Shown here piece after piece: positions 51,850 through 63,784 of a stretch of 64,000 nt of DNA. The position numbers and the translations under genes are program-made. The notes below the pieces were generated by a model. The model had not been told where the DNA came from. It saw only the letters and a list, made by a program, of their open reading frames with translations, and ran no database searches. Positions within the stretch are counted from its first letter, which is position 1; every line of letters begins with the position of its first letter. Source of the stretch: an uncultured Gammaproteobacteria bacterium (GTDB lineage: Bacteria > Patescibacteriota > Microgenomatia > Daviesbacterales > UBA10151); NCBI GenBank assembly GCA_964392925.1, contig CAYMRP010000004.1, positions 71,184 to 135,183 of the forward strand, written 5' to 3'.

Positions 51850-53358
51850 TTAATTTACCGGTAAGCTTGATGAAGTGCCTGCCGAAGCAGCTGGACTGCC
51901 GCTAGGTGTTGGTGAAGCTTTTTGCTGAGCAGCTCTCATCGCCGGGCTAAGCGATGCTGCTGGACTTGAAGCAGGGTCTGGTGATCCGCCTACTGTAGGT
52001 GCTGGTAATGCAGTGTCTGTTGTTGGTTCCATGACTGGAACTGGAGATGGGGCAACTATTTGTGCCGGAGGATTAGTTAATGGAGCTTGTGTCTGTTGTG
52101 TTTCTTCAACAGGTAAAGAAGTTTCATCTGTAGGTGTTGGATTAGCTTGCCCCACTCCTAATATTAAATAAGCACTTAAAGCTGCAACTATCAGGATAAT
52201 TGGAATACCCGCAACTAAAAGTACTTTTGTTAAATTTAAATGCTTACCAGGAGGTGGAGCATCGCCTTCTGCTGATTGTGGTGTTGCAGAAGCCGGAGCC
52301 ATATTCAAGTTCTGATCAGCTGCAACTGGTGGGGTATAAACTCCATTCGTCTGCGAAGGTGCTGTCTCGTCACCTGCAATTAAATGCGATAAATCAGTTG
52401 GGGCATTCTCAACAGGTCCCATGTCCGGAAGAGGGGAGGCTGTAGGTGCGGCTGCAGCCTGATCAGGTTGTATTGGTGCTTGCATAGCAGCTGGATCTGC
52501 AGGCGGAGTAGTTGTAGCCCCGAGTCCCGATTGAAGTCCTGATAAATCCATCGATCCGGGTTGCGGCTGTGAGGACATAGTTTGATCCTGAATTTGGGCA
52601 GTTTCTTGTGGTGGGTTTCCAGGCTGGACATTTAGATCAATAGTAGGTGTCGCCATTGGGTCAGACATCGAAGCTGCTACTGGCGCTGCGGTTGGCGCTG
52701 AGAACTGTGACTCTGCCGGAGCCGGTTGATCCCAAGGATTAACAGTTGGTGCAGCAGGCTGAGTAGGATCACTAGGTAGCGCCGTAGCTCCTTCAAACGG
52801 ACTCTGCGGAGGAGTCGGAGTGAATGCTGTATTCAAAGGATCAGGTGGAGTAGTTGTCTGAGCACCGTATGGTGCGGCTGGTTGTTCAGGCAAAGGCGTA
52901 GGTGCTGCAGGCTGTTCAAAGGGAGGTGATGTATTAAAAGTCCCTGCTTGAGGCTGTAAAAAAGGATTAGCGGCTGCCGGATTTTCACTTGGCACTGCTG
53001 GTTCTGGAGGTGCCATCGGAGCTGTTGGTACATCTGTCGGAACAGTCGCTTGTGGGGTAGGCGGCCACGCCGCTCCTGAACTTGCGGTCGGTGTACTTGG
53101 CAATGGTGAAGAAAATCCAGGTTCTGGTGCAACAGTTTCAACCGGTACCGGGCTCCAAGGATTAGGAGCAGCTGTTGGGTTTGATTGGGCTGGATCTGAC
53201 ACAGGCATACTGGAAGAAAGGGGAGCTGATGTTGCCGATTGGTCAGGACTGCTGGACCATCCTGGAGTTTGTTGTGGAGGGGTTAATGGATCAACAGGGG
53301 CTGCGCCAAAAGGTAAACTAGGATTGTTATTTGGATTATTAGGGTCATTACTATCCAT
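51850..53358 (-). CDS. Proline/alanine/threonine-rich low-complexity protein with a single TM helix
   Basis: The 502-aa ORF is open over 1.5 kb with extreme P/A/T/Q/S composition and one hydrophobic helix (VLLVAGIPIILIVAALSAYLILGV). It shows a marked local GC rise. Confidence 0.5.
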   Translation of the reverse strand: MDSNDPNNPNNNPSLPFGAAPVDPLTPPQQTPGWSSSPDQSATSAPLSSSMPVSDPAQSNPTAAPNPWSPVPVETVAPEPGFSSPLPSTPTASSGAAWPPTPQATVPTDVPTAPMAPPEPAVPSENPAAANPFLQPQAGTFNTSPPFEQPAAPTPLPEQPAAPYGAQTTTPPDPLNTAFTPTPPQSPFEGATALPSDPTQPAAPTVNPWDQPAPAESQFSAPTAAPVAASMSDPMATPTIDLNVQPGNPPQETAQIQDQTMSSQPQPGSMDLSGLQSGLGATTTPPADPAAMQAPIQPDQAAAAPTASPLPDMGPVENAPTDLSHLIAGDETAPSQTNGVYTPPVAADQNLNMAPASATPQSAEGDAPPPGKHLNLTKVLLVAGIPIILIVAALSAYLILGVGQANPTPTDETSLPVEETQQTQAPLTNPPAQIVAPSPVPVMEPTTDTALPAPTVGGSPDPASSPAASLSPAMRAAQQKASPTPSGSPAASAGTSSSLPVN

Positions 53359-53490: not shown

Positions 53491-56292
53491 ATGCTTAATT
53501 TTTTTTCTTCATTAATCGATGCCAATAAACGGGAAATTAATCGCCTCTCAAAAATCGTTGAAACCATTAATAGTTATGAAGCTAAAATCAAAAAGTTTGA
53601 CGATAAAAAGTTTAAAGAAAAAGCTCTAGATCTACGTAAAAGACATGAAAAAGGTGAAACCTTAGAGTCTCTTTTACCTGAAGCTTTTGCTTTCGCCCGC
53701 GAAGCCGCTAGCCGCAGCCTAGGCATGCGTCACTATGATGTTCAGCTAATGGCAGCCATCGCTTTGCACAGCGGTAAGATCGCCGAACAACGAACCGGTG
53801 AAGGAAAAACTATGTCTGGTGTTCCGGCCATTTTTCTAAATGCTCTTTCCGGTAAAGGTGTCCATGTAGTTACGGTAAATGATTATTTAGCTCGCCGCGA
53901 TGCAGGTTGGAATGGACCTATCTTTCATACTCTAGGTGTTTCAGTCTCAGTTATTATTCATGAAAAGGCTTTTCTTTTTGATCCAAAATATAAAGATCCA
54001 GACACAACAGATAAACGGCTTAAGAATTTAAGACCAGTCACTCGCAAAGAAGCTTATGCTGCTGATATAACTTACGGCACTAATAATGAGTTTGGTTTTG
54101 ATTATCTAAGGGACAACATGGCCAACAGCTTGGATAATATGGTTCAGCGAGGTCACAATTTCGCCATCGTTGATGAAGTAGATTCAATTTTAATTGACGA
54201 GGCCCGTACTCCATTAATTATTTCAGCCCCCGATACTGAGCCCACAGGTAAATATATTGAGTTCACCAAAATCGTCAGTCAGCTTGATGGTAAAACAGAT
54301 TATGTAGTTAACGAAAAAGAACGTGCAGCCCACATGACAGAGGAAGGTATTCTTCATATCGAAAAAATTATGGGTGTCGATAATCTTTATGAAAAAGATT
54401 TTTCTGCTCTTCACCATATAGAAGAAGCCTTAAAAGCCAGAACCCTTTTTCTTAAAGACCGCGACTATGTTGTTAAAGATGGCGAAGTAATTATTGTTGA
54501 TGAATTCACTGGCCGTTTAATGCCGGGCCGCCGTTACTCCGGAGGTCTACATCAATCAATCGAAGCCAAAGAAGGCGTTAAAATCCAACAAGAGTCAAAA
54601 ACTTTAGCCACAATTTCTTTCCAGAATTACTTCAGAATGTATAAAAAGCTTTCTGGTATGACTGGAACTGCAGCCACCGAAGCAGAAGAATTCTTTAAAA
54701 TCTATAAGCTGGAAGTAGTTATTATCCCAACTCATCAACCTATGATCAGAAAAGATAATCCTGATGCTATCTTTAAAACCCAAACCGGTAAATTGATGGC
54801 CGTCGCCTCAGAAGTTGAAAAAATTCATGCATCTGGCCAGCCTGTTTTAGTAGGTACAACTTCGATTGATAAAAACGAATTCTTATCTGAACTCTTAAAG
54901 AAAAAGCGGATCTCCCACGCACTTTTAAATGCTAAAAACCACGAACGCGAGGCCGAAATTATTGCTGATGCCGGTCAAAAAGGTTCAGTAACTGTAGCCA
55001 CTAACTTAGCCGGTCGTGGTGTCGATATTAAGCTTGGTAAAAATGTTGAAAAATTAGGCGGACTTTATGTTATCGGTACCGAACGTCACGAATCAAGGAG
55101 AATCGATAATCAATTAAGAGGCCGCTCAGGTCGTCAGGGTGACCCGGGTGCTTCCAAATTCTTTGTTTCTCTTGAAGATGATTTAATGAGAATCTTTGGC
55201 GGCGAGCAAGTCGCAAGAGTCATGGGCTTTTTAAAAATGCCGGAAGATACTCCTATCGAAAACGGTATGGTTTCCAAAGCAATTGAAGGCGCACAGAAAA
55301 AAGTTGAAGGTCATAATTTTGATATCCGTAAACATACAGTTGAATACGACGACGTTATGAATCAGCAGCGCCAGATTATTTATGGTGTCAGAAGGAATGT
55401 CCTGGATGTCTTAGCTGGAAAATCCAAAGATGGTAAATCTCTTAAGGATGAAATCATCGAAAAAATCGGCATTGAAGTCGAAGCCATCATTGATGACTAT
55501 GCGATTGAAGGGGAGATAGAATATGAAAAAATTATCGAAGATTTCTCAACCATAATTAATTTTGATCAAGCCAGCCGTAAACAGCTATTAGGCCAAATCT
55601 CAGATATCAAAGATGAAGCTAAATTAAAAGAATTTTTAGTCCGTCTCGCCGAAGATCTCTACGGTGAAAAAGAAAAAACCGTCGGTGCCGATCTGATGCG
55701 CCAAATGGAAAGCTTTGTTTACTTAAACACAATTGATACTTTTTGGATGGAACATCTCGATACAATGGATGATCTTCGCTCAGGTATCGGATTGCGCGGA
55801 TATGCCCAAAGAGATCCTCTAATCGAATATAAAAAAGAAGGCTTTGAGTTATTCGAAAAAATGATTGCTGAAATTGATTCAGAAATTGCCAGACGTATCT
55901 ATAAAGTCTCAATGCATAATCATGGGCCAGTCCAGGTTGTTTCTCCAATCGATATGTCAAAAGCCGTCGCAACCCACGATGAGGCGCTCGATGAAAAAAC
56001 CTTACTTGAAGAAGTCGGCCAGCTTATGCCGTCAGTTCCTGAAGTTCGCCACAGCGGAACCAAAATCAAAGTTGAAGGCTCAAGTAATGATGAGGCATAC
56101 TCTCAGACTCCGACTGTAGTCGAAGAACCAGTTGCTGCCGGCACCCGAGTTACTGTTGAAAGAGCCGGTCAGGTTGTCTCACAAGATGTCTATAACGATA
56201 CAGGTTCGCTCCAAAGGAAAAAGCCTGGCAGAAATGACCCCTGCCACTGCGGTTCAGGCAAAAAATATAAAAAATGCCATTATCCTAATTAG
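53491..56292 (+). CDS. secA: Preprotein translocase ATPase SecA
   Basis: DEAD-like motor (Walker A GEGKTM, DEVDSILIDEART), preprotein cross-linking and helical scaffold domains, and a C-terminal zinc finger CHCGSGKKYKKCH. The track start at 53425 is likely too early; the ATG at 53491 (MLNFFSSLID) fits SecA N-termini. Confidence 0.95.
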   Translation: MLNFFSSLIDANKREINRLSKIVETINSYEAKIKKFDDKKFKEKALDLRKRHEKGETLESLLPEAFAFAREAASRSLGMRHYDVQLMAAIALHSGKIAEQRTGEGKTMSGVPAIFLNALSGKGVHVVTVNDYLARRDAGWNGPIFHTLGVSVSVIIHEKAFLFDPKYKDPDTTDKRLKNLRPVTRKEAYAADITYGTNNEFGFDYLRDNMANSLDNMVQRGHNFAIVDEVDSILIDEARTPLIISAPDTEPTGKYIEFTKIVSQLDGKTDYVVNEKERAAHMTEEGILHIEKIMGVDNLYEKDFSALHHIEEALKARTLFLKDRDYVVKDGEVIIVDEFTGRLMPGRRYSGGLHQSIEAKEGVKIQQESKTLATISFQNYFRMYKKLSGMTGTAATEAEEFFKIYKLEVVIIPTHQPMIRKDNPDAIFKTQTGKLMAVASEVEKIHASGQPVLVGTTSIDKNEFLSELLKKKRISHALLNAKNHEREAEIIADAGQKGSVTVATNLAGRGVDIKLGKNVEKLGGLYVIGTERHESRRIDNQLRGRSGRQGDPGASKFFVSLEDDLMRIFGGEQVARVMGFLKMPEDTPIENGMVSKAIEGAQKKVEGHNFDIRKHTVEYDDVMNQQRQIIYGVRRNVLDVLAGKSKDGKSLKDEIIEKIGIEVEAIIDDYAIEGEIEYEKIIEDFSTIINFDQASRKQLLGQISDIKDEAKLKEFLVRLAEDLYGEKEKTVGADLMRQMESFVYLNTIDTFWMEHLDTMDDLRSGIGLRGYAQRDPLIEYKKEGFELFEKMIAEIDSEIARRIYKVSMHNHGPVQVVSPIDMSKAVATHDEALDEKTLLEEVGQLMPSVPEVRHSGTKIKVEGSSNDEAYSQTPTVVEEPVAAGTRVTVERAGQVVSQDVYNDTGSLQRKKPGRNDPCHCGSGKKYKKCHYPN

Positions 56293-56300
56293 GTTTTTCT

Positions 56301-56723
56301 ATGATAAAAACAGCCAGCGAAATAGTTGACCAACTTAGAACCGAAGGTCACCGTATCACCCCGATTAGAAATCGGATTCTCGATATTCTCTCCAAGAGCA
56401 CAGAGCCTATTTCGGCATTAGATTTAATAGCAGACTTTAAATCCTCAAATCTTAACGTTAACAAAACCACCATCTACCGGGAAATAGAATTTTTATTAGG
56501 CAAAAATCTTATTAATGAAGTTGAATTTGGAGATGGCAAAAAAAGATACGAGATGGATAATGGGCATCACCATCACTTAGTTTGCTTAAAGTGTGGCAAA
56601 GTTGAAGATGTTAGTTTGGAGACGGATTTATCATCGGAAGAAAAAAAGATAGAAAAAGAAACAGGTTTTAAAGTTGAATCTCATTCATTAGAATTTTTTG
56701 GAATTTGTAAAACCTGCCAATAG
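56301..56723 (+). CDS. Fur-family metalloregulator (Fur/Zur/PerR)
   Basis: N-terminal winged helix (RITPIRNRILDIL), HHHH metal site and CxxC...CxxC (HHHHLVCLKCGKV...FGICKTCQ). Confidence 0.85.
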   Translation: MIKTASEIVDQLRTEGHRITPIRNRILDILSKSTEPISALDLIADFKSSNLNVNKTTIYREIEFLLGKNLINEVEFGDGKKRYEMDNGHHHHLVCLKCGKVEDVSLETDLSSEEKKIEKETGFKVESHSLEFFGICKTCQ

Positions 56724-56808
56724 AACTTTACTAAAGGTAAGTTGTTTACTAACAGCGATTTTCGTGCTAACTTAATCAAGTCAAATTCAAAACGAAAGGG
56801 GGTGTTTT

Positions 56809-57291
56809 ATGGAAGAACAAGTAAATACACAAGGCAGTTTGCCGAAGTTTGTAATGCCCACTGTTGTTGCAGCTCTAATAGTGTTCGCAGTTATCGGTTA
56901 TTATTTTTATAATTCCGGCTCAAATAACTCGTCTCAGCCAGCATCCACTATGGAAGGCCAAGGTTCTCCTGCAGCGGTTTCAGAAAGTAATTCGAATTAT
57001 AAAAATGGTACTTACACCATTAACGGGGAATACGTTAGCCCAGGAGGGCCCAGAGAAATTGGGGTAACTTTAACTTTGACTGATGGTTTAGTAACCGCAG
57101 CAGAGAGTCAGGTGCTCGCCGAGGATGCCACCTCTAAAAGATTCCAAACCGAGTTCGTTGAAGGTTTTAAACCAATGGTTATTGGTAAAAGTCTAAACGA
57201 AGTCGTTCTATCAAAAGTTTCGGGCTCATCTTTAACTCCTAAAGGATTTAATGATGCTGTCGAAAAGATTAAAGTTGAGGCTCAGTCTTAA
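56809..57291 (+). CDS. FMN-binding domain protein (NqrC/RnfG/PplA-like), predicted extracytoplasmic, with candidate flavinylation motif
   Basis: N-terminal TM anchor and an FMN_bind-like C-terminus. KVSGSSLTPKG aligns with the (D)AVSGAT(V)TS(R) flavinylation motif; there is a strong SD (AAGGGGG) upstream; ApbE is encoded immediately downstream. Confidence 0.6.
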   Translation: MEEQVNTQGSLPKFVMPTVVAALIVFAVIGYYFYNSGSNNSSQPASTMEGQGSPAAVSESNSNYKNGTYTINGEYVSPGGPREIGVTLTLTDGLVTAAESQVLAEDATSKRFQTEFVEGFKPMVIGKSLNEVVLSKVSGSSLTPKGFNDAVEKIKVEAQS

Positions 57292-58170
57292 ATGATTTGG
57301 GATCAAAAGTTTAATTTTGAAGAAATAGGAACCTCATGGACTATTGAATATTCAGGAGTCTCAAAACTTTCACCTGAATTACTTATAGAAAAGATCCGCG
57401 CAGAAATTAATAAATTCTCGCGGGTTTTTTCTAGGTTTGACAAAAATTCAGCGGTTTTTAAATCAAGTAAAACCGCATCTGAGATTATTATTCCGGAAGC
57501 TTATTTACCGCTTCTAGCTATCTATAAATCTTTATATAAATTAACTGACGGTTTATTCACTCCTCTTGTTGGAAATTTACTTTCTGAATCAGGCTACGAC
57601 GAAGATTATTCTCTGGTTCAAAAAAAATTAAATCCTGTTCCGCAGTGGGACCAAGTTATTGAGATTTCCGGAGAAACAATTAAATTTAAAAAGCCCTGGC
57701 TTCTAGATTTTGGCGCGGCCGGCAAAGGATTTATTGTTGATCTGATAGGGGAGTTGCTGGAAGATCAAAATATTAAGTCCTATTGTATAGATGCCGGCGG
57801 AGACATTCGCTATAAATCTGATAACAATGAAAAACTAAAAATCGGCCTTGAGCACCCCGATAATTTAGATCAGGTTCTTGGAGTTGCAGATCTAGAAACA
57901 GGTAGTATTTGCGGCTCATCTGGAAATCGCCGCAAATGGGCAAATCTTCACCATATTTTCAACCCTAAAAAACTTGATTCTGTTAGAGAAGTCCTGGCAG
58001 TTTGGGTAATTTCAGATACTACTTTAATAGCAGATGCTCTCTCGACAGCTTTATTCTTTGTAAACCCGGAAAAGCTTTTAGGAGATTTTAAGTTTCAATT
58101 TCTAATAATTTACCCGGATTTCACTTTTAAAAAATCCCCAAACTTCCCCGGTGAAGTATATGTGGCATGA
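57292..58170 (+). CDS. apbE: FAD:protein FMN transferase (ApbE family)
   Basis: ApbE-family motifs (FGAAGKGFIVD, CIDAGGDI, ICGSSGNRR), 292 aa, translationally coupled to the FMN_bind gene. Confidence 0.8.
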   Translation: MIWDQKFNFEEIGTSWTIEYSGVSKLSPELLIEKIRAEINKFSRVFSRFDKNSAVFKSSKTASEIIIPEAYLPLLAIYKSLYKLTDGLFTPLVGNLLSESGYDEDYSLVQKKLNPVPQWDQVIEISGETIKFKKPWLLDFGAAGKGFIVDLIGELLEDQNIKSYCIDAGGDIRYKSDNNEKLKIGLEHPDNLDQVLGVADLETGSICGSSGNRRKWANLHHIFNPKKLDSVREVLAVWVISDTTLIADALSTALFFVNPEKLLGDFKFQFLIIYPDFTFKKSPNFPGEVYVA

Positions 58171-58197
58171 GATGTCCAAGTCGGGTAAACTAGAATA

Positions 58198-59718
58198 ATG
58201 TACTTACTTAATAAAATTGATTCTCTTCTAAATTCAATCACCATGTACCGGCTGGTGCTATATGTATTACTAGTCCAATCCGCATTCGCAATAATTCTAG
58301 GTTTTCTAAATCTCCTACCTTATTCCGGAATCCAATTCACACTGACGCTTCTAGTTTTAGTCATAGTTAGTTATATATCCAATTTAATTTTTGCCTGGAC
58401 CGTCAAAGCCGTAGTTAACGTAGAGTCCTGGTTAATAACTGCCTTGATTCTTTTTTTAGTCCTGGCCCCGATAAATAATTTTCAGGATTTTATAGTCACC
58501 ACTGTTATCGCGATAGTGGCTATGGCTTCCAAATACTTTTTAACTTATGACAAAAGACATATCTTTAATCCGGCCGCTTTAGCTATGTTTCTAGCTAGCC
58601 TTTTCGGTTTCGGAAATTCTATTTGGTGGATTGGAAGTTCAATTATGCTGCCTGTCGTTTTAGTAACCGGCTTATTAATTGTTAGAAAAATTAGGAGATT
58701 TAGGTTAGTGATTATGTTCCTTGTCACAGCTGTCCTAACAGTCAGTGTCTTTAATTATTTAAATGGTATTCCTCTTACCCAAGCCTTAATCCAAGTTTTT
58801 ACATCTTGGCCTTTAATCTTTTTTGCAACGATTATGTTAACAGAGCCATTCACAACTCCTCCCAACAGAGAGTTCCGAAATTACTACGGAGTTTTTACTG
58901 GAGCATTATTTGGCTCTCAATTCTCAATCGGTCCTCTTTACGCTTCTCCAGAGCTCGCCCTAGTTGCCGGTAATTTTGTGTCATTTCTTTTAAGTCCTAA
59001 GGGTAAATTAATCCTTAAGTTTAAACAAAGAAACCAACTCGCTCCAACAATTTTCGAATTTATTTTTTCTCACAATGGGAAATATAATTTTACTCCTGGC
59101 GAATATTTAGAATGGACCCTGCCTCACCCAAATTCAGATTCAAGAGGTGTCAGAAGATATTTCACTATTGCCTCCTCCCCAGAAGAACCAGATTTAAAAC
59201 TTGGGGTTAAAATTATTCCTGATAAATCAAGTAGTTTTAAAAAAGCTCTCTTGGCTTTACAGCCCGGCAGTACACTTGCCGCCGACCAACTCTCGGGTGA
59301 TTTTGTCCTGCCTAAAAATCCCTCTCAAAAATTAGTTTTTATTGCTGGAGGAATCGGGGTAACTCCGTTTCGCAGTATGATTAATAGTCTAATTGTTAGT
59401 GGCGCAAAAAAGGACATAGTCCTTTTTTATAGCGCCGCAGATCCAAAAGAATTCGTCTATAAAGATATTTTCACTCAAGCAGAATCTTCCGGACTTAAAA
59501 CAGTTTATGTTTTTGGCGGTAAAGAAGTACCGCCTGATTGGCAAGGGGAGACAGGATTTCTAAATGAAGCAATGCTCAGAAAATATGTCCCTGATCTGAA
59601 AGAACGGAAATTCTATATGTCAGGTCCTGTCGCGATGGTTAACAATTATAAAGGCCTTCTGAAAACCCTAGGCATCTCCAACTCATCAATCGTTACCGAC
59701 TACTTCCCCGGCTTCTAG
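58198..59718 (+). CDS. Fusion protein: NqrB/RnfD-like polytopic membrane domain + C-terminal ferredoxin-NADP reductase-like FAD/NAD(P)H-binding domain
   Basis: The N-terminal ~280 aa carry about 8 TM helices with RHIFNPAALAMF (compare RnfD/NqrB ...FNPAM/LNPAL) and TEPFTTP (compare TDPVTAS). The C-terminus has the RxYS FAD motif (RRYFTIASSPEEP) and an NAD(P)-binding GxGxxP motif (FIAGGIGVTPF). Confidence 0.65.
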   Translation: MYLLNKIDSLLNSITMYRLVLYVLLVQSAFAIILGFLNLLPYSGIQFTLTLLVLVIVSYISNLIFAWTVKAVVNVESWLITALILFLVLAPINNFQDFIVTTVIAIVAMASKYFLTYDKRHIFNPAALAMFLASLFGFGNSIWWIGSSIMLPVVLVTGLLIVRKIRRFRLVIMFLVTAVLTVSVFNYLNGIPLTQALIQVFTSWPLIFFATIMLTEPFTTPPNREFRNYYGVFTGALFGSQFSIGPLYASPELALVAGNFVSFLLSPKGKLILKFKQRNQLAPTIFEFIFSHNGKYNFTPGEYLEWTLPHPNSDSRGVRRYFTIASSPEEPDLKLGVKIIPDKSSSFKKALLALQPGSTLAADQLSGDFVLPKNPSQKLVFIAGGIGVTPFRSMINSLIVSGAKKDIVLFYSAADPKEFVYKDIFTQAESSGLKTVYVFGGKEVPPDWQGETGFLNEAMLRKYVPDLKERKFYMSGPVAMVNNYKGLLKTLGISNSSIVTDYFPGF

Positions 59719-59788: not shown

Positions 59789-59867
59789 TTACTGTGTTTC
59801 GCTAACAAGTTAGAATATTGACAAACGCCACAAAGTTGCATATACTTAATGCCACAAGGTTGCAATT

Positions 59868-60857
59868 ATGGAAAGAAGAGAAGCCTCTAACGAACTAAAT
59901 AAATCACTAAACTCTGTTGGCTTAAGACTTGAAGGTGCCCCAAAAGTTATAATCCCTAAAACGCTTAGTGCTGAAATTCTGGCAGCAAAAGCCATCGCTA
60001 TGTCAGAAGACATGCAATATGGTTTTGATTTAGCAAATATAGTCACAGATCTCAGGCAATCTGCAATCAGAACCCTAAAAGACGGAAAGTCCTTTCCATT
60101 AGTACTGGATATACCAAACCTCGCAGATCCGAATTATGAACCTACTCCAGCTGATATTGCGCCTTCTTTGCTCGCCGCAAGTCTTGGAAGTTTTGCAATT
60201 GTCAGGATTGCTATGCCAAACTCAGATCACAGTATATCGCAGCTTTACGGAACAACTACACCCAGAACAAACATTGATGAGGGGGAACTGCAATTTACTT
60301 ACATCGGATTAAGAGTCTCGAGTAAGAGCGGTTATAAATGGGAGTCCCCCGCGCAAATAGATCCTTTAAGACCAGACCTGGTCTCTCCGGCCGATATGGA
60401 AACTTATTTATCAGGTGCAAATCAACTCGGCCTAGTTGGTGATCACGATAACTCAGGAATAAAAGTTTCAGATCCAAGACACTTAATAAATCTCCTCCAC
60501 GGCCTAGCAAATCCTGGACTTAGCGGACATTGGGCAGATGCACTTGAAAGTAATGGTCAAAGAAAACTTTTGACCGAAACATCAGCAAAAAGAATAATTG
60601 CCCCTAACGAGTTTGGCGACAGCTTGTATCAAGACCCCCTAAACACGACCCCTGTATTCACAATAGGTGCAGAGAGAATTCCCATGGCCATAGTTCTGGC
60701 CCCTGAACTTATGGAAGATATAGATTCTCTTGAAACCAGACGCAGTAATAAACCGGGAAGTCTTGAAACTTTGCAAGGAATGGCGCTCGCTGCACGTTTC
60801 GCGCAGAGATTAGGGGATAGCTTAGATCGGGCAATACCTAAAAGCGGAATGATTTAA
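59868..60857 (+). CDS. Hypothetical protein (no recognisable family), GC-richer than surrounding genes
   Basis: 329-aa ORF preceded by two GCCACAARGTTGCA direct repeats and the tandem 25-nt motifs. Confidence 0.4.
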   Translation: MERREASNELNKSLNSVGLRLEGAPKVIIPKTLSAEILAAKAIAMSEDMQYGFDLANIVTDLRQSAIRTLKDGKSFPLVLDIPNLADPNYEPTPADIAPSLLAASLGSFAIVRIAMPNSDHSISQLYGTTTPRTNIDEGELQFTYIGLRVSSKSGYKWESPAQIDPLRPDLVSPADMETYLSGANQLGLVGDHDNSGIKVSDPRHLINLLHGLANPGLSGHWADALESNGQRKLLTETSAKRIIAPNEFGDSLYQDPLNTTPVFTIGAERIPMAIVLAPELMEDIDSLETRRSNKPGSLETLQGMALAARFAQRLGDSLDRAIPKSGMI

Positions 60858-60859
60858 CT

Positions 60860-61396
60860 ATGCTAGAGACAGCATCACCTAAAAAATTATTTGGAAAGAA
60901 AAAAATAGAATCTCAGGATATATCAACTCATTCTTTGGGAAACCCAATTCTAATAACAGAAACTCTCGACATTTTTAACCAAAGCCTGAGTGCCGAGATT
61001 ATAAAACAGGACCAGCAAATTACAGAGGTCCTTAAAAAAACATCAGATAACTTTATTAACTTCACAGGTCCTAAAGTTTTAGATTGGAATAAAAGTACTG
61101 GAAGAATAGCATTAGCAGAAAGTGTCATCAAAAATTCCGAAACCGAGTTTTTAGCATTCCGGCAAAGAATGACCGCTATGGCAGATGCTGATGGTTGCGG
61201 TGGTAAAAATGAAATTGCAAAATCTTCAGAGTCTGCTCTTTCTTCAAATGCGAATGTTATAGATTTTGGACAGGCGAAATTAAACAAAGCCTTAGGGATA
61301 AATAATAAACATACTCATAAATCAGGGGAACACGATCATTGTTCTCACGGCAATGATTACGGAGAATGCCCTAGCGGTTGTAAAAAAGCAGCCTAA
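60860..61396 (+). CDS. Hypothetical protein with a His/Cys-rich C-terminal putative metal-binding tail
   Basis: The 178-aa ORF ends NKHTHKSGEHDHCSHGNDYGECPSGCKKAA and is translationally coupled to the upstream ORF. Confidence 0.4.
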   Translation: MLETASPKKLFGKKKIESQDISTHSLGNPILITETLDIFNQSLSAEIIKQDQQITEVLKKTSDNFINFTGPKVLDWNKSTGRIALAESVIKNSETEFLAFRQRMTAMADADGCGGKNEIAKSSESALSSNANVIDFGQAKLNKALGINNKHTHKSGEHDHCSHGNDYGECPSGCKKAA

Positions 61397-61417
61397 ACTC
61401 TAAAATTAGCTGACTAA

Positions 61418-62497
61418 ATGAAAAAAATCCTAGCAGTACTTCTCCTTTTTCTTGCGTTACAAATATCTCCTGCTTTAGCTCAGGAAAACTTAGATCAGAC
61501 CATAAATTCCTCTGGGTATTCAACCCCGACCGATGAAATAAAACTTGAAGGTGTAGTTTTAGAAGATGGAAAAAAAGTCGAAGTGACCTCTCCTAACCGG
61601 CAGGGCGAAATTCTAAATACTGAGCAATCTTTTAATGCCCCTAATTCTCCGAGTTTTAAAAATGGTGATAAAGTAAAAGTTTCAATCTTTACGAATCCTG
61701 ATAACTCTCAGCAAATTTTCATTACTGATTTTATTAGAACCAGCCCGCTTTATTGGCTGTTCGGGTTATTTGTTTTGCTTGTTTTAATAATAGGAAAAAA
61801 ATCAGGACTCGGCTCGCTCGTCGGTATGGCTATATCTTTTGCAGTTCTATTCCTTTTTATTGTTCCCCAAATAACCGCCGGTCAAAATCCAATCTGGACT
61901 ACTTTAATTGGAGTATTATTTATTCTTCCTATAACTTTTTATCTATCCCACGGCATCAATAAAAAAACTACTATTGCTCTTGTTTCAACTTTTCTTTCTG
62001 TTTGTTTTACCAGTCTATTATCAATCTTCTTTATTAATACCGCCAAAATTTCCGGCTATGCTAGTGAACAGGCCGGCTTTATTCAAACTGCCAGAAGCGG
62101 AAGCTTCGATATTCAGGGATTATTATTTGCCGGAATTGTAATAAGCATAATTGGTATTCTGGATGATGTCACTATTTCTCAGGCCTCCATTGTTAATCAA
62201 CTGAAGATCGAACTACCAAAAGCTAAAGTGCTAGAGCTTTATAAAAAAGCTATGAATATTGGTCGCGATCATATTGGCTCTGTTGTAAATACGTTAATTC
62301 TTGTTTATGCCGGCGCATCCCTGCCGCTTTTAGTTTTATTCACAGACAGCAGTATTGGTTTTAACGAAGCGCTCAACAATGAAATAGTCGCCGAAGAAAT
62401 AGTAAAAACTCTGGTTGCCAGCATCGGACTTGTTCTATCAATTCCTTTGACCACAATTCTGGCTGCTTATTTTCTCAGTAATGACAAAGAAGCTTAA
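61418..62497 (+). CDS. YibE/F-family integral membrane protein
   Basis: Signal peptide, an N-terminal extracytoplasmic domain, then about 8 TM helices; the layout matches YibE/F-like proteins. Confidence 0.5.
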   Translation: MKKILAVLLLFLALQISPALAQENLDQTINSSGYSTPTDEIKLEGVVLEDGKKVEVTSPNRQGEILNTEQSFNAPNSPSFKNGDKVKVSIFTNPDNSQQIFITDFIRTSPLYWLFGLFVLLVLIIGKKSGLGSLVGMAISFAVLFLFIVPQITAGQNPIWTTLIGVLFILPITFYLSHGINKKTTIALVSTFLSVCFTSLLSIFFINTAKISGYASEQAGFIQTARSGSFDIQGLLFAGIVISIIGILDDVTISQASIVNQLKIELPKAKVLELYKKAMNIGRDHIGSVVNTLILVYAGASLPLLVLFTDSSIGFNEALNNEIVAEEIVKTLVASIGLVLSIPLTTILAAYFLSNDKEA

Positions 62498-62862
62498 GAA
62501 TTAATAATTGCTCTTGTCGCTTCAACATCCCTGGCCATTTGTGCAGTCAAATCTTTCTTATCAGGAAAATTCATAACTGGTCTTAAAAATTTAATAACTT
62601 CAACTTCGAATTCACGGGAATTCGGAATATCCGATTCCTTCGTATCAATTAAAAAGAACTCCAATGTTTTATCATCTTCTAAGAAAACCGGAATCGGCCC
62701 GTAATGCATTGCACCAATAAATTCTTTGTCTTCAATAAAAACTTTAACTGCATAAATTCCGTCATCTAAAATTAAGTCTGTTGGGATTTCTAAATTGATT
62801 GTTGGGAACCCTAAGATCTTCCCCCGGCCCTTCCCTTTAACTTGTGTGCTCTTAAACCTCAT
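62494..62862 (-). CDS. Riboflavin kinase (stand-alone flavokinase domain)
   Basis: GKGRGKILGFPTINL matches the RibF kinase-domain motif GxGRGKxLGFPTAN. The ORF is 122 aa and overlaps the upstream DMT gene by 11 nt. Confidence 0.75.
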   Translation of the reverse strand: MRFKSTQVKGKGRGKILGFPTINLEIPTDLILDDGIYAVKVFIEDKEFIGAMHYGPIPVFLEDDKTLEFFLIDTKESDIPNSREFEVEVIKFLRPVMNFPDKKDLTAQMARDVEATRAIINS

Positions 62863-63784
62863 GCTTTAATTGTAGTGAAGATAATCTCCAAATACTAAAC
62901 ATCAAAACCGCAGCTGCCAATAATTGAGTTGGAGCCAAGAATGTTTTATACAAAACTGCATCAATAATAATAGTTAACACCGGAAACACTAATTCCAAAA
63001 TAGTCGCCACCCTAACTGGAGTCTGTTTAAGACCTTTGTAATAGATAAGCAGTGCCACCATACCAGTCGATAAAGCAATAAATCCAAATTTTAGAAACTG
63101 CGAAAAATCTGGTGTAAACAATTGCGGCATCGCCCCTAGAAAAATAATAAATGGAATAGCCAAAATTGTTGTAAAAATAAATCGTAGTCCGGTAACTGTA
63201 TTAGAGTCATACTTTGTTAAAGCCATTTTAGAGAATGTTGTCGAAGTTCCCCAAGCAAACGCTGCTCCTAACGCAAATAAAGCTGCAGTTGCAGTTCCGC
63301 TGCCAGTCCCAAAATTAACCACCCCACCAGGGAAAGTGACAAAGTATGCAGCCGCAAATGCTAGGAGTGCCCAAGGTAAATAACTCTTTTTAATCGGTTC
63401 TTTAAGAAAAATTATCGCCGAGGAAATTGCAAAAATCGGCTGTAGTTTTTGGAGTAAAAATACGACAGAGAAAGGGATGAAGTTAACTTGCAAAAGTGCA
63501 GTTGTAAACCAAAGTGTACCTAATACACCGCTAAGCAACCCAATCACAATTAAAAGTAAAAATTCTTTCCGGGTTAAACGGACAGTAATTAATTTTTTCC
63601 AGATAAATGGAATTAAAATTAATAGTCCTATTAGATGCTCATAAAATACAATAATAATCGGCGGTAAAGAATAAAGGCTCCGTCTAACAACTCCGTCCAA
63701 AGCCCAAAGCACTGCTGCCGTAATAATTAATACTGGCCCTACTTTTAAAATATGTTTAATGAAGTGATTCATATAGATCCCCAC
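62852..63784 (-). CDS. DMT-superfamily (EamA-like) transporter
   Basis: 310 aa with 10 predicted TM helices arranged as two EamA-like repeats. Confidence 0.75.
   Translation of the reverse strand: MGIYMNHFIKHILKVGPVLIITAAVLWALDGVVRRSLYSLPPIIIVFYEHLIGLLILIPFIWKKLITVRLTRKEFLLLIVIGLLSGVLGTLWFTTALLQVNFIPFSVVFLLQKLQPIFAISSAIIFLKEPIKKSYLPWALLAFAAAYFVTFPGGVVNFGTGSGTATAALFALGAAFAWGTSTTFSKMALTKYDSNTVTGLRFIFTTILAIPFIIFLGAMPQLFTPDFSQFLKFGFIALSTGMVALLIYYKGLKQTPVRVATILELVFPVLTIIIDAVLYKTFLAPTQLLAAAVLMFSIWRLSSLQLKHEV

Follow-up and report, generated by a model that had tools for sequence, protein, structure and literature searches.

A probable three-gene NQR/RNF-like flavin electron-transfer operon with a signal-less ApbE in a CPR bacterium

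Positions 56809-59718 of the window, the whole 64,000-nucleotide stretch of DNA that was analysed, most likely hold a self-contained three-gene operon (FMN_bind protein, ApbE and fusion reductase) of the published NQR/RNF-like class, and the trio probably carries NAD(P)H-derived electrons through the membrane. Checking of the open reading frames between 56301 and 59718 confirmed four consecutive plus-strand genes with coordinates exactly as given in an initial annotation of this DNA, whose domain calls for all four were also borne out (Fur, PF01475; FMN_bind by family and fold; ApbE, PF02424; NqrB/RnfD::FNR fusion). The first gene encodes a 140-aa Fur-family regulator (56301-56723; PF01475, E = 7e-28) that is a neighbour of the module and not a part of it. 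After a promoter-like region (56737-56773) comes the gene of a 160-aa RnfG/NqrC-like FMN_bind subunit (56809-57291), whose TAA stop codon (57289-57291) directly abuts the ATG of the ApbE gene at 57292, in agreement with the translational coupling claimed for this pair. The 292-aa ApbE FAD:protein FMN transferase (57292-58170; PF02424, E = 2e-41) is followed by the fusion, with residues 1-266 forming the RnfD/NqrB-like membrane domain (58198-58995) and residues 267-506 the NqrF/FNR-like FAD and NAD(P)H domain (58996-59718).

The architecture had been regarded as an undescribed one, a view that does not hold. Its exact parts list, an FMN_bind protein, ApbE and an NqrB/RnfD::PF00175 fusion, was published computationally as the NQR/RNF-like system, with 127 clusters mainly from Actinobacteria and CPR (Méheust et al. 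2021, eLife, PMC8238504), and was later remodelled with an AlphaFold-multimer model of the Ktedonobacter racemifer complex (2024, PMC10979944). The locus is an ordinary new member of this class known from genomes. A single protein combines an N-terminal NqrB/RnfD domain, for which the match to the RnfD/NqrB family holds (PF03116), with a C-terminal NqrF-like NAD-binding domain (PF00175); ApbE is located immediately upstream and FMN_bind before it, the class being defined by either or both within five genes; and the flavinylated Thr of NqrB/RnfD is not conserved. Among 36 informative, non-duplicate related loci, ApbE lies within 3 kb in 28 and an FMN_bind-like gene in 29, a three-gene core far beyond chance. 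Related loci number 67 for the fusion, 44 for ApbE and 42 for FMN_bind, the last across two sub-families. No other neighbour recurs beside the trio in these loci, and no conserved partner indicates an acceptor. Co-conservation of all four genes, as envisaged at first, therefore stands for ApbE and FMN_bind but fails for Fur, which is adjacent to the trio in only 3 of the 36 loci, all of them in the window's own clade. With 360 clusters at 50% identity and E <= 1e-30, the family appears larger than the 127 clusters published.

The membrane domain of the fusion has 10 TM helices in an N-in/C-in arrangement, retains the FNPA and LTEPFTTP motifs and is collinear in alignment with RsxD, with which the FNPA/LTxP motifs are shared. 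A deletion of about 85 residues removes from it the RsxD loop with GISQATPLD, that is, the flavinylated loop of RnfD, and no [ST]G[AS][ST] motif is present in the window fusion or in 13 of 14 related fusion ORFs inspected, the remaining one carrying a TGAS. The mean of Lys plus Arg reaches 10.8 for inside loops and 0.5 for outside loops (30 sequences), a contrast by which the deleted loop would face outward and the FNR domain would lie on the inner side. As read from these alignments, the fusion has lost the predicted outward-facing loop carrying RnfD's own covalent FMN, reproducing the loss of the NqrB/RnfD flavinylation site (Thr) reported for the NQR/RNF-like class in the 2024 remodelling (PMC10979944). 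The C-terminal FAD/NAD(P)H domain is cytoplasmic and comes without a 2Fe-2S ferredoxin domain. PF00175 is detected at residues 381-484 (E = 5e-16), and the best PDB matches are NqrF FAD domains (E = 4e-20 for the NqrF FAD/NADH domain); the match is limited to the FAD/NAD domain, starting at residue 243 for full-length NqrF chains and at residue 83 for isolated FAD-domain constructs, and the TIGR01941 nqrF model scores 63.8 bits against a cutoff of 295. Loops and motifs of the membrane domain are strongly conserved, with 45 invariant columns. This conservation, together with the retention of the full 10-helix fold, related to urea and ammonium transporters (PMC12174285), and the proposed role of NqrB/RnfD as the cation path of NQR and RNF, would suit a miniature ion pump in which the two-subunit complex couples NAD(P)H oxidation to Na+/H+ export and conserves energy. 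Such a pump is nevertheless highly improbable, given the deletion of the covalent FMN loop and the absence within +/-8 kb of the RnfA/E (NqrD/E) switch module with its 2Fe-2S cluster; none of RnfA, B, C and E was found within +/-8 kb of a 94%-identical locus (L002) or among the scanned ORFs of the window.

The 160-aa protein has no Pfam FMN_bind match of its own in the profile search, but PF04205 is matched by 24 of 40 members of its family (best E = 7.9e-6). Its AF2 model has a domain pLDDT > 90, and Foldseek lists SaFMN3, RnfG, CbFMN4 and NqrC among the best matches of this model, at weak E values of 0.03-0.4 and interleaved with unrelated folds (lipoyltransferase, IscU/SufU); hhalign against RsxG gave only 2.4% probability. 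By family and predicted fold, the protein is best described as a divergent, membrane-anchored FMN_bind (RnfG/NqrC-like) protein, in which a polar stalk connects the TM anchor at the N-terminus (about residues 11-36) with the FMN_bind domain at the C-terminus (about 64-160). Hydropathy (KD) peaks at 2.25 over residues 11-29 with no obvious cleavage site, and the protein is not a lipoprotein because its sequence contains no Cys. Lys and Arg around the TM helix favour the N-terminal flank in 25 sequences and the C-terminal flank in 6, a positive-inside bias consistent with an N-in/C-out anchor and, accordingly, with a flavinylation target predicted to face outward.

The proposal that VSGSSLT represents an SGAT-like flavinylation motif is likely to be right, flavinylation itself being a prediction. 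The segment K-V-[S/A]-G-S-S-L-[T/S]-P-K-G-F is invariant or almost so in 40 sequences, and visual comparison pairs VSGSSLT with TGATITP, the acceptor motif of E. coli RsxG (DQFTGATITPRAV). In the canonical ApbE motif, D-x-x-[S/T]-G-A-[S/T], Ser is able to accept flavin, and mutagenesis has demonstrated that Asp-to-Ala and Ala-to-Val changes are tolerated with partial loss (PMC12052999). Compared with it, the S-K-V-S-G-S-S of the window keeps Gly and the acceptor Ser, both invariant, and has Ser/Thr in place of Asp and Ser in place of Ala; some family members depart from the canonical motif at the first Ser too. A candidate flavinylatable residue is present in S141 of S138-G-S-S141 (57220-57231), whose GSS is invariant in the family and which is the likely FMN acceptor. 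The clade uses a variant acceptor motif, SGSS instead of SGAT, and in these CPR bacteria the altered form (x-K-V-S-G-S-S) may have evolved together with a distinct sub-family of ApbE.

A cytosolic location is predicted for the ApbE of the window, from which signal peptide, lipobox and TM segment are all missing. Its PF02424 domain begins at residue 13, the ORF has no possible upstream extension, the hydropathy maximum (1.53) is located in the fold core, and the alignment with E. coli ApbE begins only at residue 11, the D-A-x-x-T segment, which we take to be Mg-binding, being kept as ADALST. The short N-terminus is common to 44 of 44 related ApbE ORFs of both sub-clades, and in none of them could it accommodate a signal peptide or lipobox. 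A signal-less ApbE conflicts with an outward-facing target unless flavinylation precedes export. It is conceivable, although we consider it doubtful, that topology and biogenesis are unlike the published model: the enzyme would attach FMN in the cytoplasm, where FAD is available, and the modified protein would be inserted or exported later, or the FMN_bind domain would stay inside and the published outward model would be wrong. Cytosolic ApbEs acting on cytosolic targets do exist, and ApbE recognises a 7-residue linear motif (PMC12052999); moreover, flavinylation outside the cell in Listeria is reported to require dedicated transporters for FAD export (PMC9973259), and no FAD transporter is linked to the trio among the neighbours across related loci. 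Against this stand the outward orientation of the pocket vacated by the deleted RnfD loop, the periplasmic location of RnfG and NqrC (PMC12174285), the positive-inside bias of the FMN_bind anchor and the partner proteins of clade B, which start with a signal-like MKK, a hydrophobic stretch and a Pro/Thr-rich stalk. The published AlphaFold-multimer model also brings the flavin site up to the NqrB-like FMN site (PMC10979944), and a secreted ApbE might be encoded elsewhere in the genome, beyond the 64-kb window. Were cytoplasmic flavinylation true, the module would be an inward-facing membrane NAD(P)H oxidoreductase, or FAD export would no longer be needed.

For the favoured outward-facing arrangement, domains, topology and co-conservation agree with a pared-down chain, derived from NQR/RNF, that leads from NAD(P)H to flavin; in its general form this idea of the initial annotation was sound. 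On these grounds the trio rather likely amounts to one half of the RNF/NQR electron loop, the RnfC-RnfD-RnfG one, working one-way and with a simpler input. ApbE would transfer FMN from FAD onto Ser141 of the FMN_bind protein, and NAD(P)H would reduce the FAD of the FNR domain. In RnfD/NqrB, about 8 A separate a riboflavin near the cytoplasmic face from an FMN close to the outer one (PMC12174285). In the RnfD-like domain a flavin that is not covalently bound (a riboflavin in RnfD/NqrB) would take the electrons across to the tethered FMN of the FMN_bind protein, and this FMN would occupy or sample the vacated outer FMN pocket. The electrons would then pass to an acceptor outside the cell, for example Fe(III), soluble flavin, a quinone-like compound or O2. 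For a fermentative CPR cell that has no respiratory chain, the most probable purpose would be to regenerate NAD(P)+ or to reduce an external substrate.

At the regulation level, the trio operon has what appears to be its own promoter-like region, conserved even without Fur. A -35 element, TTTACT (56745-56750), a 17-nt spacer and an extended -10 element, TGcTAACTT (56765-56773), are accompanied by a palindrome, GTAA-N5-TTAC (56737-56749), that overlaps the -35 element. In the intergenic alignment the window, L002, L007 and L009 share conserved promoter elements, as does L008, which keeps trio, promoter and palindrome with no adjacent Fur. The palindrome occurs at 0.027 per kb overall and upstream of FMN_bind in this clade only, the other three copies in the window being all intragenic. 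The regulator starts 8 nt past the secA stop codon, and has a C4 zinc site and an HHHH motif; its best PDB match, a Fur (85.6 bits), is followed by B. subtilis PerR (73 bits). Its position suggested iron or metal/redox control, and in a reading of this kind plentiful iron would lead Fur to repress the trio, whose outward flavin would reduce Fe(III) for uptake, making the module an assimilatory ferric reductase. The palindrome over the -35 element fits such control, as does the presence of Fur directly upstream of the trio in the window, L002, L007 and L009 despite different genes upstream of Fur in L009, and the VIT1 iron transporter is found in six published NQR/RNF-like clusters (PMC8238504). 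The reading is nonetheless improbable. Beyond the rarity of Fur adjacency and the Fur-less L008, Fur orthologs occur without the trio, also beside a ZIP permease, and L092 and L093 keep the orthologous gene in a SecA-Fur-Carb_kinase-RFK-EamA-Top1B backbone that lacks the trio, so that the adjacency in the window is positional. The search for a 7-1-7 Fur box with <=3 mismatches gave no match in 56000-57000, although the real operator of a CPR regulator may differ, and no iron transporter recurs beside the trio in related loci. A better operator candidate than the trio promoter is GCAAC-N3-GTTGC, common to the fur-ZIP promoter of L094 and to the window's next operon (P329–P178–YibE_F), not to the trio. 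The stand-alone riboflavin kinase downstream is indeed present (62494-62862, minus strand; PF01687, E = 5.5e-26), but its proposed link to the module falls away, since RFK-EamA belongs to the same backbone and persists without the trio. By synteny, Fur, riboflavin kinase and EamA are neighbours only and not parts of the system.

As one more example of a genome-catalogued class, the locus changes little, and the Fur and riboflavin-kinase linkage is removed as a misleading lead. Hardly any membrane redox machinery is recognised in CPR bacteria, and so compact a conduit, with two subunits leading from NAD(P)H out of the cell, would bear on redox balance and on external substrate reduction by these fermentative, often host-dependent cells. 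The signal-less ApbE poses a concrete problem for the published model, namely where and when the flavin is attached.

Among known systems, the NQR/RNF-like class shares with the window module the parts list, a host range that includes CPR, the lost NqrB/RnfD flavinylation site and a proposed one-way transfer of electrons that starts at NAD(P)H and ends on an acceptor outside the cell. The window clade differs in having S-G-S-S instead of [S/T]-G-A-[S/T], in the absence of the motif Asp and in an FMN_bind protein that misses the Pfam model, and the signal-less ApbE found throughout the class is a point not discussed in the papers describing it. Like RNF, the module has an anchored RnfG-type FMN_bind partner with a homologous acceptor motif, and both depend on ApbE; unlike RNF, it lacks RnfB, the operational marker of that complex, along with RnfA/E (the 2Fe-2S switch), RnfC and the covalent-FMN loop of RnfD, on the cytoplasmic side a fused NqrF-type FNR domain takes the place of RnfC, and electron flow would presumably be outward only, with no semicircular loop. 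Na+-NQR is approached through the C-terminal domain, closest to the NqrF FAD/NADH domain, and through the NqrC-like FMN_bind partner, but only NqrB-, C- and F-like parts are represented, NqrA, NqrD, NqrE and a 2Fe-2S domain being absent. Quinones are generally not known from CPR bacteria. The comparison with Listeria PplA/FmnB is fair as an analogy, since in that extracellular electron-transfer system (Ndh2, EetA/B, DmkA/B, PplA, FmnB, FmnA) an ApbE-family enzyme flavinylates a membrane-associated FMN_bind protein and electrons move outward, but not as membership: the NF041941 PplA model reaches 14.5 bits on the window where 325 is the cutoff, FmnB is a lipoprotein, as is PplA with its two FMN_bind domains, the route of the electrons across the membrane runs via Ndh2 and quinone and not through an RnfD-like flavin wire, and the window locus has no FAD-export ECF components. 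Finally, MsrQ-like::PF00175, PepSY-like::PF00175 and NOX/FRE ferric reductases follow the same design, in which a polytopic membrane domain that conducts electrons is joined in one protein to an FNR-type NAD(P)H domain in the cytoplasm and clusters with ApbE and an FMN_bind protein (PMC8238504); their membrane domain is a di-haem cytochrome, whereas that of the window fusion is a haem-free RnfD/NqrB-type flavin-binding domain.

Four consecutive open reading frames on the forward strand were recovered with exactly the boundaries proposed in the initial annotation. They encode a Fur-family regulator (56301-56723), a 160-aa FMN_bind protein (56809-57291), an ApbE protein (57292-58170) and a 506-aa fusion protein (58198-59718), the last three of which form the trio considered here. 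Pfam bore out the Fur-family and ApbE calls (PF01475, E = 7e-28; PF02424, E = 2e-41), and in the fusion it detected both the expected FNR-like C-terminal domain (NAD_binding_1, PF00175, E = 5e-16) and, marginally, the NqrB/RnfD-like N-terminal domain (NQR2_RnfD_RnfE, 28.0 bits; cutoff 27.7). Translational coupling of the first two trio genes holds as well, the ApbE ATG directly following the FMN_bind TAA. A read-through fusion of these two genes was rejected: the ATG is in frame after the TAA in the window, but the two frames differ in L002, a related locus that is 94% identical to it. The window has a low GC content (~38%) and belongs to a CPR/Microgenomates genome, and the fusion's named relatives come from Daviesbacteria and Levybacteria.

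At the structural level, the membrane half of the fusion is related to RnfD. A profile of this domain alone had RnfD as its sole PDB match (E = 1.4e-3), its hhalign comparison with E. coli RnfD (RsxD) gave E = 1e-4, and a full-length MAFFT alignment of fusion and RsxD is collinear, with FNPA and LT(D/E)P motifs in both proteins. The closest relative of the C-terminal half is the FAD/NADH domain of NqrF. The fusion has 10 helices, and among 30 family members the mean number of Lys and Arg residues is 10.8 in even-numbered loops versus 0.5 in odd-numbered ones, which therefore puts both termini and the FNR domain on the cytoplasmic side. Compared with RsxD, the fusion lacks about 85 residues, and these correspond exactly to the outward loop that carries the flavinylated Thr of RnfD (GISQATPLD); the remnant loop, residues 136-150, faces outward. 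In RnfD and NqrB a riboflavin lies near the cytoplasmic face and a covalent FMN near the outer face, ~8 A apart (PMC12174285).

The 160-aa protein itself has no Pfam FMN_bind match. PDB sequence searches with it, as a single sequence or as a family profile, returned transmembrane-helix noise only, and its hhalign comparison with RsxG, the E. coli RnfG, is weak. The family to which it belongs comprises more than 900 proteins, and PF04205 is matched by 24 of 40 aligned members (best E = 7.9e-6). The C-terminal domain of its AlphaFold2 model reaches pLDDT > 90, and the best Foldseek matches include the flavinylated domains SaFMN3 and CbFMN4 together with RnfG and NqrC, at weak E values of 0.03-0.4 and interleaved with unrelated folds (lipoyltransferase, IscU/SufU). 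The motif K-V-[S/A]-G-S-S-L-[T/S]-P-K-G-F is essentially invariant in the family and can be aligned by eye to the RsxG acceptor region, DQFTGATITPRAV, and Ser141 is for these two reasons the predicted flavin acceptor. The putative FMN_bind identity rests on these family Pfam matches, the predicted fold and the motif. RnfG and NqrC consist of an outer-face domain carried by a single N-terminal helix (PMC12174285). The 160-aa protein is built likewise, with a positive-inside bias of 25 versus 6 at its membrane anchor.

The simplest reading of the anatomy of the fusion and the FMN_bind protein is a path from NAD(P)H to the outside. Electrons would pass from NAD(P)H to the FAD of the cytoplasmic FNR domain, then to a non-covalent flavin in the RnfD-like domain and from there, at the vacated outer pocket, to the FMN tethered on the FMN_bind subunit, which would hand them to an external acceptor. 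The minimised NQR/RNF-like chain envisaged initially is broadly right in this respect and agrees with a published proposal. How the tethered flavin would be installed is less straightforward. In the window and in every related locus, the N-terminus of ApbE is too short for a signal peptide or lipobox; its reading frame starts no more than about a dozen codons ahead of the first strand of the fold, and it has no transmembrane segment. Characterised ApbEs are mostly secreted lipoproteins, and the known cytosolic ones act on cytosolic targets (PMC12052999). A signal-less ApbE with an outward target implies flavinylation before export, an inward-facing FMN_bind domain, or another ApbE elsewhere in the genome. 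Neither of the two papers on NQR/RNF-like systems (PMC8238504, PMC10979944) discusses a signal-less ApbE. This question of biogenesis is the most interesting loose end of the locus, and simple experiments could address it.

The conservation of the trio was assessed in 90 loci, collected by exact-protein look-ups together with a metagenome scan seeded by a profile. Of these, 36 are non-duplicate, carry a full fusion and extend at least 2.6 kb upstream; 28 of the 36 have an ApbE gene, and 29 an FMN_bind-like gene, no more than 3 kb away. All-against-all clustering of neighbours returned FMN_bind, ApbE and the fusion as the only recurrent families and no conserved acceptor or partner gene near the trio; the module is self-contained, with no acceptor encoded alongside. 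The membrane domain of the fusion alone retrieved 360 clusters at 50% identity (E <= 1e-30), most of them ~500 aa long, that is, fused. The NQR/RNF-like clusters fall into two sub-families (L012-L045 plus L060 versus L001-L011, L036 and L059-L071). The former, more distant from the window, combines the canonical DAVSGAT acceptor with a short ApbE (246-270 aa, starting with MGMP) and an FMN_bind protein that has a signal-like MKK plus hydrophobic N-terminus and a Pro/Thr stalk. The latter, to which the window belongs, has the acceptor x-K-V-[S/A/N]-G-S-S, which is SGSS in the window's clade, and an ApbE of ~290 aa.

The linkage of the trio to Fur and riboflavin kinase (RFK), both part of the original proposal, could not be upheld. 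Adjacency of Fur to the trio is confined to the clade of the window (L002, L007, L009), and Fur is missing from this position in L008 and in every more distant locus. Fur orthologs in L092 (68% identical) and L093 (60%) keep their place in a backbone of SerRS-SecA-Fur-Carb_kinase-RFK(-)-EamA(-)-Top1B-DAGK, in which FMN_bind, ApbE and the fusion are all absent (L092 5001-6291 and L093 4105-5370 versus window 56301-59718 and L009 5079-9368). Therefore, the trio is a cassette, present or absent between resident genes. Its site lies between Fur and Carb_kinase/RFK, and the backbone is otherwise collinear (SerRS, SecA, Fur, RFK, EamA, Top1B, DAGK). The stand-alone RFK gene is indeed present downstream (62494-62862, reverse strand), and RFK and EamA are backbone members too. 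The EamA-family transporter gene overlaps the RFK gene by 11 nt, so the two form an operon (62494-63784, reverse strand), and the pair is kept in the lineage backbone with or without the trio (also in L007, L008, L009, L092 and L093). RibN-type riboflavin importers belong to the same superfamily as EamA proteins. The pair is a candidate riboflavin salvage module for import and phosphorylation; the EamA protein scores 68 bits against TIGR00950 (cutoff 230). Because fur begins 8 nt past the secA stop (56290-56303), which leaves no space for a promoter, it is probably either transcribed together with secA or expressed from inside the 3' end of secA. Upstream of secA, the window encodes on the reverse strand a 502-aa protein (51850-53358) extremely rich in Pro, Thr, Ser, Ala and Gln, a composition that accounts for the high local GC (0.47). 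It matched no family, and its single hydrophobic segment is near residue 385; counterparts of 460-518 aa occupy the same place in L002, L007 and L092.

A search for the canonical Fur box (7-1-7 pattern, up to 3 mismatches) gave 14 matches versus 9 expected, none of them within 56000-57000. A conserved promoter-like region of its own (TTTACT, 17 nt, TGcTAACTT) precedes the trio, and a GTAA-N5-TTAC palindrome overlaps its -35 element (window 56737-56749; L007 5547; L008 5543; L009 5518). Across these four distinct sequences the arms are invariant and the spacer is variable. The palindrome is kept in L008, without an adjacent Fur, and goes with the trio, not with Fur. It occurs four times in the window versus 0.95 expected; it was rejected as a regulon motif, the other three copies being within genes and the element being tied to the trio. 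It may be the operator of some regulator or mere conservation of a -35/upstream element. A better operator candidate is the box of the next operon (59818-62497), which is found only in the window and L002. This operon encodes P329 (59868-60857, 329 aa), of no known family and with no relatives in PDB or Pfam searches, P178 (60860-61396, 178 aa), whose C-terminal tail is rich in His and Cys (HTHKSGEHDHCSHGNDYGECPSGC), and a membrane protein of the YibE/F family (61418-62497, PF07907). Its strong promoter (59818-59846; TTGACA-17-TATACT) reads TTGACAAACGCCACAAAGTTGCATATACT, with GCCACAAAGTTGC between -35 and -10; of the two box copies (59827-59839 and 59851-59863), the first is a perfect palindrome in L002 and the second covers the ribosome-binding site. 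In L094, a Fur ortholog (58% identical) is encoded upstream of a ZIP permease behind a promoter that reads TTGACAAACGCAACTTAGTTGCAGTAATAT, and the layout of this fur-ZIP promoter (GCAACTTAGTTGC) is nearly identical to that of the next operon. This likeness suggests that the next operon is the local target of the Fur/Zur-like regulator, and that YibE/F has a metal-related role. Should the Fur-family protein have any target in the vicinity, the next operon is the likelier one, and we predict binding at 59800-59870 (GCCACAAAGTTGC and GCCACAAGGTTGC), not at 56724-56808.

The architecture, initially put forward as a candidate novelty, is an already described one. In Méheust et al. 2021 (PMC8238504), flavinylation clusters that contain a PF03116::PF00175 fusion are defined as 'NQR/RNF-like systems', and a follow-up in 2024 presented an AlphaFold-multimer model of the Ktedonobacter complex (PMC10979944). 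The same work noted the loss of the flavinylation site of NqrB/RnfD and suggested that the flavin of the NqrC/RnfG-like subunit samples the position so vacated (PMC10979944). The present analysis arrived independently at both points. No experimental work on this class turned up in a literature search. The window locus falls within the operational definition of an NQR/RNF-like system and outside those of RNF, Na+-NQR and Listeria EET; it joins a known, computationally defined class as a member that has a variant acceptor motif.
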